From the IMG/VR virus record IMGVR_UViG_3300029686_000254: a DNA stretch of 5,537 nt; one strand, written 5' to 3'. The first letter of the stretch is position 1. The number at the start of each line of letters is the position of its first letter. The position numbers were made by a program, and so were the translations under genes. This document shows, one piece after another, positions 1 through 5,537 of the stretch. The notes under the pieces are model-generated. The model was not told where the DNA came from. It made no database searches and saw nothing but the letters and a program-made list of their open reading frames with translations. This DNA is from a virus (Duplodnaviria; Heunggongvirae; Uroviricota; Caudoviricetes).

Positions 1-1137
1 GGCCATGATTATTACTTTTATATCCGCAGTGTGAACACCGTTGGCAAATCGGCATTCGTGGAGTCCGTCGGTCGGGCGAGCGATGATGCATCAGGCTATC
101 TGGATTTTTTCAAAGGCGAGATAGGGAAAACCCATCTGGCTCAGGAGCTGTGGACGCAGATTGATAACGGTCAGCTTGCGCCTGACCTGACTGAAATCAG
201 GACGTCCATAACGGATGTCAGCAATGAAATAACACAGACCGTCAATAAGAAACTGGAAGACCAGAGTGCAGCGATCCAGCAGATACAGAAGGTTCAGGTT
301 GATACAAATAATAACCTGAACAGCATGTGGGCAGTGAAGCTGCAGCAGATGCAGGACGGACGCCTTTATATTGCGGGTATCGGTGCCGGTATTGAGAACA
401 CCCCTGACGGCATGCAGAGTCAGGTGCTGCTGGCAGCAGACAGGATTGCGATGATTAATCCTGCGAATGGCAACACAAAGCCGATGTTTGTTGGTCAGGG
501 CGATCAGATATTCATGAATGAAGTGTTCCTGAAACGCCTGACGGCCCCCACCATTACCAGCGGCGGTAATCCTCCGGCATTTTCCCTGACACCGGACGGG
601 CGGCTGACGGCGAAAAATGCAGATATCAGCGGTAACGTGAATGCGAACTCCGGGACGCTCAACAATGTCACGATTAATCAGAACTGCCGGATTCTGGGAA
701 AACTGTCAGCCAACCAGATTGAAGGCGATATTGTTAAAACGGTGGGCAAAGCTTTCCCCCGGGACTCCCGTGCACCGGAGCGGTGGCCATCAGGAACCAT
801 TACCGTCAGGGTTTATGACGATCAGCCGTTTGACCGGCAAATTGTTATCCCGGCGGTGGCATTCAGTGGCGCTAAACATGAGCAAGATCATACTGATATC
901 TACTCCTCATGCCGTCTGATAGTACGAAAAAACGGTGCTGAAATTTATAACCGAACGGCTCTGGATAATACGCTGATATATACGGGTGTTATTGATATGC
1001 CTGCAGGCAGTGGTGTCATGACACTGGAATTTTCTGTATCGGCATGGCTGGTAAATGACTGGTATCCCACAGCAAGTATCAGCGATTTGCTGGTTGTGGT
1101 GATGAAGAAAGCCACCGCAGGCATCAGTATCAGCTGA
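1..1137 (+). CDS. J: Central tail fibre / host specificity protein (lambda gpJ-like), C-terminal part; 5' end lies upstream of the window
   Basis: The reading frame is open from position 1 to the TGA at 1135-1137, so the M at 31 in the ORF track is internal. The translation ([25 protein letters not shown] ... [30 protein letters not shown]) matches my recollection of the C-terminal region of lambda gpJ. Gene order J-lom-stf supports the call. Confidence 0.88.
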
Positions 1138-1155
1138 ATTTTATAACCCATATAC

Positions 1156-1180
1156 GGGCGCCAGAAATGGCGCCTTTTTT
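1156..1180 (+). terminator. Rho-independent terminator downstream of J
   Basis: Self-complementary GGCGCC (1157-1162) and GGCGCC (1169-1174) form a 6-bp GC stem around a 6-nt loop AGAAAT, followed directly by TTTTTT (1175-1180). It starts 19 nt after the J stop codon. Confidence 0.75.
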
Positions 1181-1193
1181 ATTGCAGAAAAGC

Positions 1194-1199
1194 GAGAGG
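1194..1199 (+). promoter_or_regulatory. Shine-Dalgarno sequence for lom
   Basis: GAGAGG lies 5 nt upstream of the ATG at 1205. Confidence 0.6.
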
Positions 1200-1204
1200 T
1201 AATT

Positions 1205-1804
1205 ATGCGTAAAGTTTGTGTAGCCATTTTGTCCGCAGCCATCTGTCTGGCCGTATCCGGTGCGCCTGCATGGGCGTCTGAGCAGCCGGCCACACTGAGC
1301 GCAGGGTATCTTCATGCCCGTACGAACGCTCCCGGCAGCGATAATCTGAACGGGATTAACGTGAAATACCGTTATGAGTTTACGGACACGCTGGGGCTGA
1401 TTACGTCATTCAGTTATGCCAACGCTGAAGATGAGCAAAAAACGCATTACAGCGATACCCGCTGGCATGAGGATTCCGTGCGTAACCGCTGGTTCAGTGT
1501 GATGGCGGGGCCGTCTGTGCGCGTGAATGAATGGTTCAGCGCGTATGCGATGGCGGGTATGGCTTACAGCCGTGTTTCGACGTTCTCCGGGGATTATCTC
1601 CGCGTAACTGACAACAAGGGGAAAACGCACGATGTGCTGACCGGAAGTGATGACGATCGCCACAGCAACACGTCTCTGGCGTGGGGAGCTAGCGTGCAGT
1701 TTAACCCGACCGAATCCGTGGCCATTGATATTGCTTATGAAGGCTCCGGCAGTGGCGACTGGCGCACTGACGGTTTCATCGTGGGTGTCGGTTATAAATT
1801 CTGA
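1205..1804 (+). CDS. lom: Lom, outer-membrane beta-barrel protein of the Ail/Lom/OmpX family, with signal peptide
   Basis: 199-aa ORF. The N-terminus MRKVCVAILSAAICLAVSGAPAWA is a typical signal peptide. The C-terminus DIAYEGSGSGDWRTDGFIVGVGYKF matches the lambda Lom C-terminus as I recall it and ends in the terminal aromatic residue typical of OMP barrels. Position immediately after J is as in lambda. Confidence 0.93.
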   Translation: MRKVCVAILSAAICLAVSGAPAWASEQPATLSAGYLHARTNAPGSDNLNGINVKYRYEFTDTLGLITSFSYANAEDEQKTHYSDTRWHEDSVRNRWFSVMAGPSVRVNEWFSAYAMAGMAYSRVSTFSGDYLRVTDNKGKTHDVLTGSDDDRHSNTSLAWGASVQFNPTESVAIDIAYEGSGSGDWRTDGFIVGVGYKF

Positions 1805-1830
1805 TTAGCCAGGTAACACAGTGTTATGAC

Positions 1831-1857
1831 AGCCCGCCGGTTCAGGCGGGCTTTTTT
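1831..1857 (+). terminator. Rho-independent terminator downstream of lom
   Basis: AGCCCGCC (1831-1838) pairs with GGCGGGCT (1845-1852) as a perfect 8-bp stem around the loop GGTTCA, followed by a T6 run (1852-1857). Confidence 0.8.
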
Positions 1858-1868
1858 GTGGAGTGGAT

Positions 1869-4241
1869 ATGGCAGCAGTAAAAATCTCAGGTGTGCTGAA
1901 AGATGGTGCGGGAAAACCAATACAGAACTGCACTATTCAACTGAAGGCAAAGCGTAACAGCACCACGGTACTGGTGAACACGGTGGCCTCTGAAAATCCT
2001 GATGAAGCCGGGCGTTACAGCATGGATGTTGAGTATGGCCAGTACAGCGTCACCCTGCTGGTTGAAGGTTTTCCGCCTTCACATGCCGGGACCATTACCG
2101 TCTATGAAGGTTCCAGACCAGGTACGCTGAATGATTTTCTTGGTGCCATGACGGAGGATGATGCCCGTCCGGAGGCACTGCGCCGTTTTGAACTGATGGT
2201 GGAAGAAGCAGCACGCAACGCTGAAGCCGCCTCTCAGAGCGCAGCGGCGGCAAAGAAATCCGAAACTGCAGCGGCATCATCGAAGAACGCGGCGAAAACC
2301 TCAGAAACGAATGCAGCTAACAGCGCACAGGCGGCAGCGACCTCACAGACTGCATCGGCAAACTCCGCGACAGCAGCCAAAAAATCAGAAACCAACGCGA
2401 AAAACAGCGAGACAGCCGCAAAGACGAGCGAAACCAACGCAAAGTCCAGCCAGACGGCAGCGAAGACCAGCGAAACGAATGCCAAAGCCAGTGAAACTGC
2501 GGCAAAAAACAGCCAGGTTGCAGCAGCCCAAAGCGAGAGCGCGGCAGCCGGTTCTGCGACTTCAGCAGCTGGATCAGCAACTGCTGCGGCTAACAGCCAG
2601 AAAGCTGCGAAGACGAGTGAAACTAACGCAAAGTCCAGCCAGACGGCAGCGAAGACCAGCGAAACGAATGCCAAAGCCAGCGAAACTGCGGCGAAAAACA
2701 GCCAGGATGCAGCAGCCCAAAGCGAGAGTGCCGCAGCTGGTTCTGCAAGTGCGGCGGCTTCTTCTGCCACTGCATCAGCCAACAGTCAAAAAGCAGCAAA
2801 AACCAGTGAAACCAATGCAAAGACAAGCGAGACTGCGGCGACTAACTCGGCGAAAGCATCCGCTGCAAGCCAGATGGCTGCAAAAGCAAGTGAAGACGCA
2901 GCCAGAGAGTATGCAAGCCAGGCAGCAGAGCCGTATAAATATGTCTTACAGCCACTGCCTGATGTGTGGATACCGTTTAATGACTCGATGGATATGATTA
3001 CAGGATTTGGCCCGGGATATAAAAAAATAACAGTGCGCGATGATGTGGTCACTATACCATCCGACAAAATTGTCCCGTTTTCCCGCGCGAGTTCCGCGAC
3101 CTATATCAATAAGTCCGGCGCTCTTACCATTGCAGAAATTAATGAGCCACGTTTTGAAAAAGAAGGGCTGTTAATTGAAGGGCAGAGAACTAACTATCTA
3201 AAAAATTCTAATACACCGGAATTGTGGTACTACCACAGTTTACTGGCGAAAGAGTATGGGGTTGATAATTACGGTTTTAATTATGCAACCGTCACCGTGA
3301 CAGACAGCCTTGTAGGCACAACCAGTAGTTATCAGATTCATAGTGTAACTGGAGAGAACAGGTTTTCTCTGTCCATCGGTGAAACCTGCACTTTTTCTGC
3401 CCGCTTTCGTGGAGTTAATTCACGTTGTCGCGTCCATATATCTCTTGTTATTGGCGAAAATGTTAAAACATCTGTTGATGTATGTCTGGAGCCAGATACA
3501 GGTGAGGTTAAGGCGTACGGTAATAAGGCGCTGGTGACATTCAGAACGGAAAAACAGGGGGACTGGTGTTACTTTGAAACAACATATACCGCCGCAGAGA
3601 ATATTGACGAAGTGGTATGCGGTTTTTTTATAACCAATCCTGAAGATGGTGGTTTTTCTTCTGATTCGTCATTAACAATGACTACGCCGCAAATTGAAAA
3701 AGGGTCATGCGCTTCATCGTTTATTATTTCCGGAAACACACCAACCACGCGCGCCAGTGATATGGTTATTTTTTCAACCAAAAATAACATAAGTTCTGTC
3801 CCTTTAAGCTGTCTTGTTGAAATACATAAAAATTGGGACTCTACGCCAAATCAGGCCCCACGAATTTTAACCACTATTGGCGTGGCGACTAATGATGAAC
3901 AACTGGTATTGGCTTTCAGGACGCCTACAAGTCCGGATGTAGAACCTTTACCTTATGTTCAGTTTGGAGTGAGATCTGCATATCTTAGTCCATCTGTGAA
4001 GGCCGGGCGCAAAATGATTGCTGGTTTTGTCTGTAATAGCTCGACTGAATTTCGTTGCTGTTGTAATGGTTACCTGTCACCTGTTCAGACTTCGTCATGG
4101 AAGAATACCGGAGCTGCACATGAAATACGTATTGGGGGAACTTCTGCTGGAGGAGAACGTCACTTGTTTGGTCACGTTCGTAACCTGAGAATATGGCATA
4201 AAGAATTAACTGATGCGCAAATGGGGGAGAGTATTAAATGA
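1869..4241 (+). CDS. stf: Side tail fibre protein (lambda Stf-like N-terminus, Ala/Ser/Thr-rich repetitive shaft, divergent C-terminal receptor-binding domain)
   Basis: Long ORF ending at TGA 4239-4241. The ORF track starts at GTG 1863, but ATG 1869 is preferred: it gives MAAVKISGVLKDG..., matching the lambda Stf N-terminus (MAVKISGVLKDG...), and GGAG at 1860-1863 sits 5 nt upstream. The first ~110 aa (…RYSMDVEYGQYSVTLLVEGFPPSHAGTITVYEGSRPGTLNDFLGAMTEDDARPEALRRFELMVEEAARNA) are lambda Stf-like. Residues ~120-350 are repetitive AAKTSETNAK-type sequence. The C-terminal ~430 aa are AT-rich and end ...ERHLFGHVRNLRIWHKELTDAQMGESIK, which resembles the end of a concanavalin-A-like/LamG-type jelly-roll domain. 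Confidence 0.9.
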   Translation: MAAVKISGVLKDGAGKPIQNCTIQLKAKRNSTTVLVNTVASENPDEAGRYSMDVEYGQYSVTLLVEGFPPSHAGTITVYEGSRPGTLNDFLGAMTEDDARPEALRRFELMVEEAARNAEAASQSAAAAKKSETAAASSKNAAKTSETNAANSAQAAATSQTASANSATAAKKSETNAKNSETAAKTSETNAKSSQTAAKTSETNAKASETAAKNSQVAAAQSESAAAGSATSAAGSATAAANSQKAAKTSETNAKSSQTAAKTSETNAKASETAAKNSQDAAAQSESAAAGSASAAASSATASANSQKAAKTSETNAKTSETAATNSAKASAASQMAAKASEDAAREYASQAAEPYKYVLQPLPDVWIPFNDSMDMITGFGPGYKKITVRDDVVTIPSDKIVPFSRASSATYINKSGALTIAEINEPRFEKEGLLIEGQRTNYLKNSNTPELWYYHSLLAKEYGVDNYGFNYATVTVTDSLVGTTSSYQIHSVTGENRFSLSIGETCTFSARFRGVNSRCRVHISLVIGENVKTSVDVCLEPDTGEVKAYGNKALVTFRTEKQGDWCYFETTYTAAENIDEVVCGFFITNPEDGGFSSDSSLTMTTPQIEKGSCASSFIISGNTPTTRASDMVIFSTKNNISSVPLSCLVEIHKNWDSTPNQAPRILTTIGVATNDEQLVLAFRTPTSPDVEPLPYVQFGVRSAYLSPSVKAGRKMIAGFVCNSSTEFRCCCNGYLSPVQTSSWKNTGAAHEIRIGGTSAGGERHLFGHVRNLRIWHKELTDAQMGESIK
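2215..2900 (+). repeat. GC-rich low-complexity coding region of stf made of degenerate 42-nt (14-aa) units of the form AAK(T/K/N)SETNAK(S/A/N)S(E/Q)T
   Basis: Repeated peptide units are visible in the translation: AAKKSETNAKNSET, AAKTSETNAKSSQT, AAKTSETNAKASET, AAKTSETNAKTSET. This region explains the spurious overlapping ORFs on both strands. Confidence 0.85.
2421..2798 (+). repeat. Tandem direct duplication, 2 x 189 nt (63 aa), in frame inside stf
   Basis: Copy 1 begins aagacgagcgaaaccaacgcaaagtccagccagacggcagcg... at 2421. Copy 2 begins aagacgagtgaaactaacgcaaagtccagccagacggcagcg... at 2610. The first ~97 nt differ at about 4 positions by eye; the rest of each unit is more diverged. A partial third unit follows at about 2799-2850. 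Confidence 0.85.
4223..4230 (+). promoter_or_regulatory. Shine-Dalgarno sequence for the 93-aa ORF, embedded in the 3' end of stf
   Basis: GGGGGAGA lies 7 nt upstream of ATG 4238. That ATG overlaps the stf stop codon (ATGA at 4238-4241). Confidence 0.55.
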
Positions 4242-4519
4242 AAGATTTAACACTCAAATTTGCAGACAGGGCCGACTTTTCGGCCTTTATGGATAGCACG
4301 GGCTATTATGATGACGAGTCGATGCAGGATGATATTCTTATTGACGTGATAGGTAACGTGTACAAAGAAACCGGAGAACTGACTGAAGATGGCGAACCGG
4401 TATGTGTTAAGGAAGACGGATATTTTGTAAACGTGCGCATCATTAATGATGCAAAAAAATCGTCAATATTCGATGAATACGCGGTTGTTGTTGAACATCA
4501 ACTTCGTGGCTGGATGTGA
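4238..4519 (+). CDS. Hypothetical small acidic protein (93 aa), translationally coupled to stf; possible tail-fibre accessory or chaperone, or anti-defence protein
   Basis: The start codon overlaps the stf stop (ATGA), with an SD-like GGGGGAGA upstream. By my count there are about 21 Asp+Glu against about 9 Lys+Arg, giving a net charge near -12. I recognise no family and it is not Tfa-like. Confidence 0.6.
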   Translation: MKDLTLKFADRADFSAFMDSTGYYDDESMQDDILIDVIGNVYKETGELTEDGEPVCVKEDGYFVNVRIINDAKKSSIFDEYAVVVEHQLRGWM

Positions 4520-4528
4520 GGCAGAAAA

Positions 4529-5233
4529 ATGGCTACATCGACAGTAATTCCTGGAGACATCACCACGCTGAAGGGAGATGTCAGTAAGGCAAAGGAAGAT
4601 ATTTCCTCAATTAACGGTAAAGTATCAACGCTTCAGACTGATATGACCAGTGCAAAGCAGGATATCAGCACCAGATACACAAAAACTGAAGTTGATAATA
4701 AGCTGAAAAACAAAGTGGAAGTGAACGATCTGGAAAGCGGTCGTTATGGCGGAGATTTTTATCCACTGACAGGTCGTGAAGCGTTTTATTTATGGGGATT
4801 GGGCACGACTACAGCGGCGGCAAACCTTTATCTTAATCCTGACCCTGCAATTTCGTCTGTACTGCGGTCAACATCGTCTATCCGCTATAAAGATTCAGTA
4901 GAGACGATAGATTCAGAGCACGCCGATCTCATTTTCAAGCTGCGCCCTGTATGGTACAGATCGCAATGCGAAAATGACAGGCGTGAATGGGGATTCTACG
5001 GATTGATTGCCGAGGAAGTAGGAGAAATTGCTCCTCAGTTTGTACACTGGCGACCAGCTAACGAAGATGATGCTCCTGAAGCTATTTCCAGCAATGGCCT
5101 TGTTGCCGAAGGTGTAATGTACGAACGTCTGGTTGTTCCACTTATTCACCATATCCAGAAACTGACTGAAAGAGTTGATGAACTTGAGTCAGAATTGAAG
5201 TTGTTATCAACTTCCCGAAGCGATATCGGATAA
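4529..5233 (+). CDS. Tail-fibre-like protein with N-terminal fibrous repeat region and C-terminal intramolecular chaperone / autoproteolytic domain (Peptidase S74-like)
   Basis: 234-aa ORF with GAGG 7 nt upstream of the ATG. Residues ~8-70 show roughly 11-residue repeats (GDVSKAKEDIS / SINGKVSTLQT / DMTSAKQDIST), consistent with a coiled-coil or fibre region. Residues 116-121 (SSIRYK) fit the S-D-x-R-x-K serine-lysine dyad motif of the endosialidase/T5 pb1-type chaperone domain. The downstream sequence (LIFKLRPVWYR ... WGFYGLIAEEVGEIAPQFV ... YERLVVPLIHHIQKLTERVDELESELKLL) follows that domain's pattern, including the terminal helix. Confidence 0.8.
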   Translation: MATSTVIPGDITTLKGDVSKAKEDISSINGKVSTLQTDMTSAKQDISTRYTKTEVDNKLKNKVEVNDLESGRYGGDFYPLTGREAFYLWGLGTTTAAANLYLNPDPAISSVLRSTSSIRYKDSVETIDSEHADLIFKLRPVWYRSQCENDRREWGFYGLIAEEVGEIAPQFVHWRPANEDDAPEAISSNGLVAEGVMYERLVVPLIHHIQKLTERVDELESELKLLSTSRSDIG

Positions 5234-5239
5234 AGGAGG
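5234..5239 (+). promoter_or_regulatory. Shine-Dalgarno sequence for the 97-aa membrane protein ORF
   Basis: A perfect AGGAGG lies 4 nt upstream of ATG 5244. Confidence 0.65.
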
Positions 5240-5243
5240 AGTA

Positions 5244-5537
5244 ATGGATATAACACCTTTTCTTCATGCGCTTTGTGCTGTGGCTGCGCAGGTACTGATT
5301 GGTCTTTTTACCGGAAACTGGGTTTACGGGGCGATAGCCGGTTGTACGTTCTTCATTGCGCGTGAACACACCCAGGCAGAATATCGCTGGATTGAAATGT
5401 TCGGGCATGGCAAGCGAATGAATATGCCGTGGTGGGGCGGTTTTGATCCGCGCGCGTGGGATGTGGCAAGCCTGATGGATTTTGCTGTGCCGGTGGTGGC
5501 GTGTCTGCTGGTCTGGCTGTTGGTTAATCGTGGGTGA
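5244..5537 (+). CDS. Hypothetical small membrane protein (97 aa, two predicted transmembrane helices)
   Basis: Strong SD (AGGAGG) and a complete ORF ending at TGA 5535-5537. Hydrophobic segments FLHALCAVAAQVLIGLFTGNWVYGAIAGCTFFIA and ASLMDFAVPVVACLLVWLLV are separated by a charged, Trp-rich loop (EYRWIEMFGHGKRMNMPWWGGFDPRAWD). GC content is higher than in the two upstream ORFs. Family not recognised. Confidence 0.65.
   Translation: MDITPFLHALCAVAAQVLIGLFTGNWVYGAIAGCTFFIAREHTQAEYRWIEMFGHGKRMNMPWWGGFDPRAWDVASLMDFAVPVVACLLVWLLVNRG

Follow-up and report, generated by a model that had tools for sequence, protein, structure and literature searches.

A probable mobile side-tail-fibre module and a putative captured membrane-protein gene at the right end of a lambdoid prophage

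Layout of the locus

The DNA analysed here is a stretch of 5,537 nucleotides (nt) from a tailed phage (IMG/VR record IMGVR_UViG_3300029686_000254), hereafter the window. The sequence covers the late operon of a lambdoid prophage at its right end and carries, downstream of an stf-like side-tail-fibre gene, three closely spaced open reading frames (ORF1, ORF2 and ORF3). A reading made from the sequence alone had correctly recognized the lambda synteny (J-lom-stf-tfa-b region) and had proposed that the three ORFs form an accessory cassette; the reading that we favour is that ORF1 and ORF2 belong, with the distal half of Stf, to a mobile fibre module and that ORF3 is a separate gene. The features are as follows (window coordinates; aa, amino acids):

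1863-4241, + strand: stf-like side-tail-fibre gene, 792 aa
2973-4241, + strand: distal domain of Stf, about 420 aa (aa 371-792); G+C content 0.428, compared to 0.546 for the proximal part; opens the low-G+C block
3197-4194, + strand: hypervariable core of Stf, the putative first exchangeable receptor-binding segment; no homology to PhiR49_1 (blastn)
4223-4231: Shine-Dalgarno-like site for ORF1, GGGGGAGAG
4238-4519, + strand: ORF1, 93 aa; its ATG overlaps the stf stop codon as ATGA (4-nt overlap)
4518-4521: Shine-Dalgarno-like site for ORF2, GAGG
4529-5233, + strand: ORF2, 234 aa, starting 9 nt past the ORF1 stop; N-terminal anchor, coiled coil, small knob and C-terminal predicted self-cleaving chaperone domain
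4529-4576, + strand: anchor motif of ORF2, MATSTVIPGDITTLKG (family consensus M[AV]TxT[VN]IPxDIxxLK), kept while the rest of ORF2 is swapped
4874-5233, + strand: Peptidase_S74 intramolecular chaperone domain of ORF2 (aa 116-234)
5234-5239: Shine-Dalgarno-like site for ORF3, AGGAGG
5244-5537, + strand: ORF3, 97 aa, starting 10 nt past the ORF2 stop, its own stop being the window's final base; three-helix membrane protein with the invariant motif REHTQAEYRW...MPWWGGFD
31-1137: J, C-terminal 368 aa
1205-1804: lom, intact in the window

The tight packing that had been noted for the three genes is borne out by the ORF coordinates (a 4-nt overlap, then spacers of 9 and 10 nt), and each gene is preceded, 5-12 nt upstream, by its own purine-rich Shine-Dalgarno-like site. 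A consensus scan of positions 3800-5537 revealed no terminator-like site (shuffled sequences gave 1.2 +/- 1.1) and no promoter-like site on the plus strand, with one on the minus strand. The hallmark of a moron, a promoter and a terminator of its own on either side, was not seen for the three ORFs, as judged from consensus matches only. The minus-strand ORFs of the region matched no family, and searches of the region for Rfam families, tRNAs and meaningful repeats found none.

Base composition is heterogeneous, as had also been pointed out: the G+C contents of ORF1, ORF2 and ORF3 are 0.415, 0.445 and 0.534, respectively. The idea of a stepwise acquisition that was built on these values holds insofar as the composition indicates a stepwise assembly, but the low-G+C block does not start at ORF1: it opens inside stf, whose codons 1-370 have a G+C content of 0.546 and codons 371-792 one of 0.428. 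ORF1 and ORF2 thus have the G+C content of distal stf (0.42 and 0.45 compared to 0.43), and ORF3, while differing from both, equals the lambdoid backbone (0.51-0.55 for the backbone and ORF3).

All three ORFs are real genes: they are under purifying selection, with ratios of nonsynonymous to synonymous substitution rates (dN/dS) of 0.14-0.36 relative to diverged alleles, and their proteins have homologues, at 35-55% identity, in other phage families far beyond the lambdoid phages of Escherichia coli.

The distal domain of Stf

The N-terminus of Stf matches the Pfam family phage_tail_N (E = 3e-67), and the similarity of the protein to lambda orf-401 (60% identity) is restricted to aa 5-331. Stf is made up of a lambda-like N-terminus and shaft joined to a non-lambda distal domain. 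We inspected in detail five virulent phages (ESCO3, phC17, KarlBarth, tinuso and FFH2) along with IrisVonRoten. The distal domain is 34-49% identical over about 400 aa, i.e. over its whole length, to the fibres of the five virulent phages, with which it shares the end motif RIGGQ..RHLFGH.RN.RIWHK.LTD.Q, and the alignment of Stf with IrisVonRoten gp22 (aa 133-791, 42% identity, E = 3e-144) includes the shaft repeats and the distal domain.

Within the distal domain, aa 437-631 match the NCBIfam family GTA_spike_fiber (NF048003) with 66.2 bits (cut-off 36; E = 5e-18). The RIWHK.LTD.Q part of the end motif presumably resembles the C-terminus of the Laminin_G_3 family; the Pfam scan of the window's Stf gave no Laminin_G_3 match, nor did it give any match to Peptidase_S74.

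The shaft (window positions 2200-2850) is a low-complexity Ala/Ser/Thr-rich repeat (KTSETNAK...) with an AT skew of up to 0.73. It contains internal direct repeats of about 250 nt (2403-2651 and 2592-2841) and gives rise to long spurious ORFs (182 aa on the minus strand and 228 aa on the plus strand). IrisVonRoten gp22 has a shaft repeat of the same type.

Occurrence of the module in temperate and virulent phages

A tblastn search with ORF1 retrieved 179 phage records, which extend beyond the lambdoids to T1-like Drexlerviridae, Dhillonvirus, Nonagvirus/Seuratvirus, T5-like Tequintavirus/Epseptimavirus and rV5-like myoviruses. Where the rows are annotated, the ORF1 match is almost always found immediately behind a gene labelled as tail fibre or tail protein, which it usually overlaps; the association with a fibre that had been suspected from the window is therefore found in other phages as well. 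In each of the phages inspected, the fibre has a homologous end of about 420 aa and its stop codon is overlapped by the ORF1 homologue. The complete three-gene order of the window, namely a lectin-ended fibre, an overlapping acidic gene of about 92 aa and a gene opening with M[AV]TxT[VN]IPxDI, was found in the Nonagvirus ESCO3, the Tequintavirus phages phC17 and IrisVonRoten, the Dhillonvirus KarlBarth and the Warwickvirus tinuso; the full motif (M[AV]TxT[VN]IPxDIxxLK) opens the gene after ORF1 in these five phages and in HannyBb. In IrisVonRoten (gp22/gp23/gp24), even the 4-nt overlap and the 9-nt spacer are identical to those of the window.

The temperate phage HannyBb and the virulent ESCO3 (compared over L002 2629-6323 and L004 1905-5347, respectively) are 96% (distal Stf), 92% (ORF1) and 90% (ORF2) identical at the amino acid level, ESCO3 being devoid of ORF3. 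This points to a recent exchange of the whole module between temperate and virulent phages. The ORF2 that they share is the 343/351-aa allele.

The boundaries of the exchangeable parts can be read from nucleotide alignments. Blastn homology between the window and PhiR49_1 covers positions 1099-3197 (91%) and 4194-5537 (95%) with a full break in between, and homology with HannyBb extends over positions 4157-4572, comprising the end of stf, ORF1 and 44 nt at the start of ORF2, is interrupted across the body of ORF2 (4572-5243) and resumes at 5243-5537 with ORF3. The Stf core (3197-4194) and the ORF2 body (4572-5243) have therefore been replaced independently. What stays conserved is a joint made of the stf 3' end, ORF1 and the N-terminal anchor of ORF2. 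In agreement with this picture, the distal Stf domain is less than 60% identical to that of the window in 132 of 136 distinct loci, and ORF1 is more than 85% identical in most.

The co-occurrence that had been expected of the three genes is seen: ORF2 follows a window-type ORF1 in 99 of 101 assessable loci, and ORF3 comes next in nearly all lambdoid loci. The remaining two loci (L035 and L072) have no ORF2 match, L035 having a 90-aa truncated copy. At least 80% of the three-gene block is present in 723 of 5,426 complete E. coli genomes, and some part of it in 1,910. In the same genome search, 58 of the 3,967 matching places lie on plasmid records, which suggests that phage-plasmids, or prophage fragments on plasmids, carry the fibre block or ORF3 as well.

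ORF1, a putative assembly factor

The ORF1 product is a small (10.7 kDa), very acidic (isoelectric point 4.2), monomer-like protein, with a soluble alpha/beta character and no hydrophobic segment. Scans against Pfam, NCBIfam and PADLOC returned no match. We considered the possibility that ORF1 is a diverged lambda Tfa (Caudo_TAP) and rejected it, on the basis of the lack of a Pfam match at E<=0.01, a BLASTP comparison with Tfa (E = 35) and a profile comparison (probability 0.15%). ORF1 and IrisVonRoten gp23 share 37% identity (E = 3e-24).

ORF1 lies behind this type of fibre in all 136 distinct loci examined. The same fibre slot, in three lineages, shows one of two endings: either lambda Stf with Tfa, or T5 pb1 and rV5 gp41 with an S74 domain, on the one hand; and, on the other hand, a lectin-type end followed by ORF1, as in the window, in IrisVonRoten (gp22/gp23) and in FFH2 (gp41/ORF40). 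For LL12, a phage that has been related to rV5, gp41 is reported to lack the S74 domain present in rV5 gp41 (PMC7229145). Fibres followed by ORF1 lack both Tfa and an S74 domain. ORF1 is most likely an assembly factor of the lectin-ended fibre, because it occupies the slot held elsewhere by Tfa or by an in-cis chaperone domain; of all the clues, this location weighs most.

The main alternative is that ORF1 is a permanent joint, i.e. a structural adaptor of the virion that connects the anchor of ORF2 to the end of Stf. We give this limited credence. ORF1 is retained in the absence of ORF2, both in phage 21-type loci (16 loci) and in FFH2, and its job must therefore be tied to the first fibre; being small, very acidic and monomer-like, it looks like many fibre chaperones; and the published model of the IrisVonRoten fibre, in the passages that describe it, joins gp24 to the proximal fibre without gp23 (PMC11990801).

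ORF2, a putative short distal fibre

The C-terminal part of ORF2 carries a Peptidase_S74 domain: Pfam identifies it at aa 116-172 with 28 bits (cut-off 22), the match covering positions 1-57 of the 58-position profile and thus starting at profile position 1. ORF2 also matches PHROG 3299 (E = 8e-139) and aligns to residues 952-1069, the chaperone region, of chain 8hqz_d, a 1,076-aa protein named 'L-shaped tail fiber assembly' which, from its length, we take to be DT57C LtfA. At the domain boundary, TS-SIRYK of ORF2 is aligned with TS-GIEYK of this chain, and Ser116 and Lys121 of ORF2 have the spacing expected for the S74 dyad. Endosialidase-type/S74 domains, such as that of T5 pb1, drive trimerization and then cleave themselves off by means of a Ser/Lys dyad. 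By analogy, ORF2 would cut itself before Ser116, with Lys121 as the general base, and the predicted mature product would be a 115-aa chain in which the anchor (16 residues) is followed by a coiled coil containing fibre-type repeats and then by a knob of some 50 residues.

Two main alleles of ORF2 exist, of about 234 and about 346 aa, and ORF2 resembles IrisVonRoten gp24 in the anchor and the C-terminal domain only. A conserved N-terminus followed by a swappable body is typical of docked receptor-binding proteins, as described for DT57C LtfB, phiEco32 and Drexlerviridae (PMC4728585, PMC8594841). ORF2 is most likely a short distal fibre, because of its C-terminal, predicted self-cleaving chaperone domain of the Peptidase_S74 type.

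One could also imagine that ORF2 is a chaperone acting in trans, whose S74 domain folds the upstream Stf and which never becomes part of the virion. The short allele has just 115 residues before the S74 domain, mostly coiled coil, the window's Stf has no chaperone domain of its own, and homologues in KarlJaspers, KurtStettler and HMD-P4 are annotated as 'putative lateral tail fiber chaperone'. We nevertheless find this improbable: the S74 domains that are generally known (endosialidase, T5 pb1) act in cis on their own polypeptide; longer alleles at this locus (343-588 aa) have large distal domains attached to an identical type of N-terminal anchor; and the phage 21-type and FFH2-type fibres, which belong to the same family, manage without ORF2. 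The conserved N-terminus with a variable body is, here again, the signature of a docked receptor-binding protein (PMC4728585, PMC8594841).

ORF3, a membrane protein from a widespread family

ORF3 belongs to PHROG 1443, whose function label is 'unknown'. It has no match in Pfam, NCBIfam or PADLOC, and the PADLOC scan for defence systems gave no match for any of the three ORFs. An alignment of 45 sequences contains 22 invariant columns, concentrated in H8, Q16, R40-E41-H-T-Q44-A-E46-Y-R-W and M61-P-W-W-G-G-F-D68. In the AlphaFold2 model (mean predicted local distance difference test score of 92.3), helices span residues 4-23, 26-53 and 74-96: two of them lie in the N-terminal part, the second continuing into a charged, amphipathic stretch, and a single membrane helix lies at the C-terminus. 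Fold searches with this model yielded nothing informative or specific, and comparison of the alignment profile with PDB sequences gave a chance match only. In an exhaustive hidden Markov model search, the profile retrieved 437 clusters at 50% identity; the best 150 of these are all 58-146 aa long, with no fusion to a known domain, and ten distant family members had only sub-threshold matches in Pfam.

The five virulent phages inspected that carry the Stf-ORF1-ORF2 module are devoid of ORF3, and it is also absent after IrisVonRoten gp24. In phage 21-type loci, ORF3 directly follows ORF1, ORF2 being missing. In the P22-like phage Gally (L168 4001-4288), it lies, without ORF1 or ORF2, between the tailspike gene and int, the interval in which P22 carries gtrABC. 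A terminator-like hairpin (L168 3789-3809) and a promoter-like site (3826-3855), both consensus matches only, separate it there from the tailspike gene, so that the Gally homologue would be a separately transcribed moron. Other members of the family lie immediately behind the tail fibre gene in P2/HP1-like prophages (Aeromonas and Leclercia). In Citrobacter the gene comes after GpJ and a pectate-lyase spike, in Comamonas after a giant GpJ, and a 160-kb contig from Salmonella has it between two spike genes; in other genomes, it is preceded by a Laminin_G_3 protein, a Tail_spike_N protein or a pectate-lyase/S74 fibre. Loci with a member of the family include, besides that of Gally, L173-L176 (at 5001-5300), L164 (6001-6303), L202, L204 and L238.

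Other copies are chromosomal and follow ligA (three alphaproteobacterial loci of the Sphingomonas type) or pnp, a DAHP synthase gene or pirin (other alphaproteobacterial, Novosphingobium and Aeromonas loci). We had considered that ORF3 might always adjoin a receptor-binding gene; examination of 70 species-representative loci showed that this is true only of the phage-borne copies, many chromosomal ones following housekeeping genes. The proposal that the three genes work as one functional unit does not hold, since ORF3 is found without ORF2 (phage 21), without both other genes (P22-like, P2-like and other prophages) and on non-phage chromosomes. Given these contexts and its absence from the virulent carriers of the module, ORF3 appears to be an independent gene that lies outside the fibre module, and we concluded that it is a small cellular membrane protein captured by phages. 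Its recurrent placement after receptor-binding genes that target glycans suggests, albeit with low confidence, that it acts on the envelope, for example by masking receptors, by exclusion or by modifying glycans.

That same placement could alternatively mean that ORF3 is a functional partner of receptor-binding proteins, for instance a membrane-bound factor for the maturation or deployment of fibres and spikes, and hence a true third member of the module. The phage-borne copies lie 0-65 nt (240 nt in Gally) downstream of the receptor-binding gene in at least eight unrelated contexts, i.e. the lambdoid Stf module, P22-like tailspike, P2/HP1-like fibres, pectate-lyase spikes, the interval between the Salmonella spikes, the Laminin_G_3 protein, a Desulfovibrio S74 fibre and the Comamonas GpJ. 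We regard such a partnership as rather unlikely, however: the neighbouring receptor-binding proteins have unrelated folds, stand-alone chromosomal copies exist in Sphingomonadales and Aeromonas, the five virulent carriers of Stf-ORF1-ORF2 dispense with ORF3, and the hairpin and promoter-like site of Gally set it apart from the tailspike gene.

At this same junction, phage 21 (L003 5399-8848) carries true cargo: the sitABCD operon, which encodes an iron/manganese transporter, lies behind the ORF3 homologue on the other strand; a literature search on phage 21 with sitABCD found nothing.

Flanking sequences

The closest complete genome is that of E. coli 19KM1803, which is 99.9% identical in the three-gene block and about 96% identical over window positions 406-5537. 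In this genome, a 120-nt pseudogene of the tfa 3' end lies 3' of ORF3, with host genes (zinT) coming next, so that no intact phage gene lies beyond ORF3 at this end of the prophage. Short remnants of the tfa 3' end, in the form of a pseudogene or of a 135-nt coding sequence (CDS), are found downstream of ORF3 at L171 7320-7439 and L001 8383-8641. A tfa remnant at this position fits a displacement of the ancestral Stf C-terminus and Tfa by the present block.

Like the window, many predicted prophage contigs of IMG/VR (length 6294, e.g. L010, L017 and L019) have the ORF3 stop codon as their very end. A convention of boundary calling is the probable cause, in which case what lies past ORF3 cannot be read from those contigs. 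At the other end, the window has an intact lom, whereas the lom of PhiR49_1 (L001 2935-3548) has been annotated in the form of two CDS and is probably disrupted.

A mobile fibre module and a captured gene

The explanation that we favour, with a probability of roughly 60%, has two parts: the distal part of Stf, ORF1 and ORF2 would constitute a mobile side-tail-fibre module, and ORF3 would be a separate membrane gene that has been captured. The module (the distal 420 aa of Stf, ORF1 and ORF2) would replace the C-terminus of lambda Stf together with Tfa. Stf would be the proximal fibre, and the domain at its end would be of a carbohydrate-binding type and a relative of the head-spike fibre of RcGTA. 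ORF1, presumably a small acidic cytoplasmic protein translationally coupled to stf, would aid the folding or trimerization of the Stf end, or stay there as a joint, thereby standing in for Tfa (lambda) or for the in-cis chaperone domain (T5, rV5). ORF2 would be a short second fibre, whose S74 domain would drive trimerization and then cut itself off before Ser116, and whose N-terminal 16 residues or so would dock the mature 115-aa trimer onto the Stf fibre. The outcome would be a branched fibre with two exchangeable receptor-binding parts. As for ORF3, it would be an inner-membrane protein of a cellular family, captured repeatedly by phages next to receptor-binding genes, and would most likely alter or guard the cell envelope (exclusion or receptor masking) rather than take part in fibre building.

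Several points weigh against this explanation. The mature part of ORF2 (a coiled coil and about 50 residues) is unusually small for a receptor-binding tip, and the chaperone label of its homologues is that of the BASEL annotators. The identity of ORF1 does not track the variable fibre core, which counts against a strictly allele-specific chaperone; ORF1 may act on the conserved end motif of Stf instead. While the homologies, the order of the genes, their domains, the mosaic boundaries, the distribution and the purifying selection are shown, the chaperone role of ORF1, the docking of ORF2 and its place in the virion, and any function of ORF3 are inferred. In nearly all lambdoid loci ORF3 accompanies the module; it has neither a promoter nor a terminator of its own in the window, and when phage-borne it almost always directly follows a receptor-binding gene, so that it may have a role in the biology of fibres or spikes. 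Finally, the co-occurrence loci were retrieved with ORF1 and ORF3 themselves (best 80 each), so that the frequencies are biased and are not population estimates.

More tentatively, one may go a step further and suppose jointly that ORF3 represents an unrecognized, widespread class of three-helix inner-membrane proteins recruited for receptor masking or exclusion, and that ORF1 represents a third, undescribed class of tail-fibre assembly factors besides the Tfa-type and intramolecular chaperones. ORF3 has an enzyme-like invariant motif (H...Q...REHxQAEY(R/K)W) and occurs as a cellular protein in Sphingomonadales and Aeromonas; phages of all three tail morphotypes would have taken it up time and again just behind receptor-binding genes that target glycans, and it would alter or shield the very envelope structure to which the adjoining fibre or spike binds.

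The accessory cassette of the sequence-only reading, in which the three genes would be moron-like cargo that jointly serves host interaction or lysogenic conversion in the lysogen, accounts for the tight packing, the common orientation, the lack of an intervening terminator, the position at the junction between the tail genes and the b region followed by the prophage end, and the presence of all three genes in the 723 E. coli genomes. We consider it very unlikely all the same. ORF1 and ORF2 recur in strictly virulent phages with the same fibre domain, overlap and spacing, always attached to a fibre gene; there is no promoter-like site on the coding strand ahead of the genes; the G+C content of ORF1 and ORF2 fits distal stf and not a separate insert; ORF3 is dispensable to ORF1 and ORF2, and vice versa; and the genes have no defence-system matches. 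ORF1 and ORF2 are instead part of the fibre apparatus itself, since they recur in virulent phages, share the G+C content of distal stf and act as conserved linkers between two hypervariable receptor-binding segments. The suspicion that the genes might merely be diverged homologues of tfa or of b-region genes was likewise laid to rest by Pfam, BLASTP and the profile comparison with Tfa. As to the notion that ORF2 is the dead 3' remnant of a longer fibre gene after recombination, it can be dismissed: although its match covers only positions 1147-1384 of the 1,385-position PHROG 3299 profile and some loci have truncated copies (90, 157 and 194 aa), ORF2 has its own Shine-Dalgarno-like site and an N-terminus common to independent genes, is intact at 233-234 aa in 64 loci, shows a dN/dS of 0.14, and has orthologues of the same length (224 aa) with about 50% identity in about 45 virulent T1-like phages.

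On the explanation that we favour, lateral-fibre modules of several genes, a kind already known, have ORF1 and ORF2 as their conserved downstream half, which in the window is set on a lambda-type fibre base. The locus is common and is already generically annotated in RefSeq. The qualifier 'undescribed', which had been attached to it, is only half true: the trio is visible in IrisVonRoten, whose gp22 and gp24 have been modelled (PMC11990801), and homologues of ORF2 have been annotated; a search of the literature on tail-fibre chaperones found nothing on the ORF families of this block.

Side-fibre modules determine which E. coli strains are adsorbed by lambdoid phages or by lambda-based delivery particles. 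A very common prophage fibre locus, present in 13% of complete E. coli genomes, is a two-cassette system whose conserved joints are defined: they are the 3' end of stf, ORF1 and the N-terminal anchor of ORF2, and they offer practical swap points for host-range engineering. Such a system also explains the exchange of receptor-binding parts between temperate coliphages and virulent ones. The analysis moreover draws attention to two abundant proteins, the ORF1 family and the ORF3 membrane family that is found behind the receptor-binding genes of many unrelated prophages.

Comparison with known systems

The closest known system is that of the BASEL phage IrisVonRoten (Bas32). In the model proposed for this phage, as given in the relevant passages, gp22 forms a long proximal fibre from which a galectin-like domain protrudes at the C-terminus, and gp24 is a distal receptor-binding fibre attached to gp22; these passages assign no role to the small gp23 (PMC11990801). 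The window and gp22-24 are alike in gene order, in the 4-nt overlap and 9-nt spacer, in the homology of Stf to gp22 and of ORF1 to gp23, and in the anchor and chaperone domain of ORF2. The differences are that the window comes from a temperate lambdoid phage with a lambda-type Stf N-terminus, that its ORF2 is the short 234-aa allele, without the double receptor-binding body (Gp12-like and T5-like) of gp24, and that ORF3 follows in the window only.

With lambda Stf/Tfa, the window shares the slot after J and lom, the N-terminal 330 aa of Stf (60% identity) and the arrangement in which a small helper gene comes after the fibre gene. By contrast, the distal half of Stf is unrelated to that of lambda, ORF1 has no detectable similarity to Tfa, and the window adds ORF2 and ORF3.

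DT57C LtfA/LtfB and phiEco32 gp14/gp15 also consist of tandem fibre genes, the second product being held via a short conserved N-terminus (PMC4728585, PMC10713586). No small intervening gene is described in these two systems, whereas the proximal fibre of the window is lectin-ended and then followed by ORF1 (PMC4728585, PMC10713586). Both DT57C fibre proteins end in a chaperone domain, whereas in the window ORF2 alone has an S74 domain. Both the S74 domain of ORF2 and its 'TYTKTEVD' repeats in the shaft can be aligned with chain 8hqz_d, our presumed LtfA. Compared to the S74 proteins K1F endosialidase and T5 pb1, ORF2 scores above the Pfam threshold and has the expected Ser/Lys spacing, but its mature part is far shorter and its cleavage is a prediction.

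The distal part of Stf recalls the RcGTA head spike fibre (Rcc01080, PDB 6TB9), in that it matches GTA_spike_fiber and, weakly, the solved chain; the domain sits at the end of a long tail fibre in the window and on the capsid in RcGTA. Lastly, ORF3 is reminiscent of T5 llp, cor, P22 gtrABC and HK97 gp15 as a small membrane protein encoded directly after receptor-binding genes, but it has no sequence or fold relation to any of them and, unlike them, has cellular homologues in housekeeping contexts.

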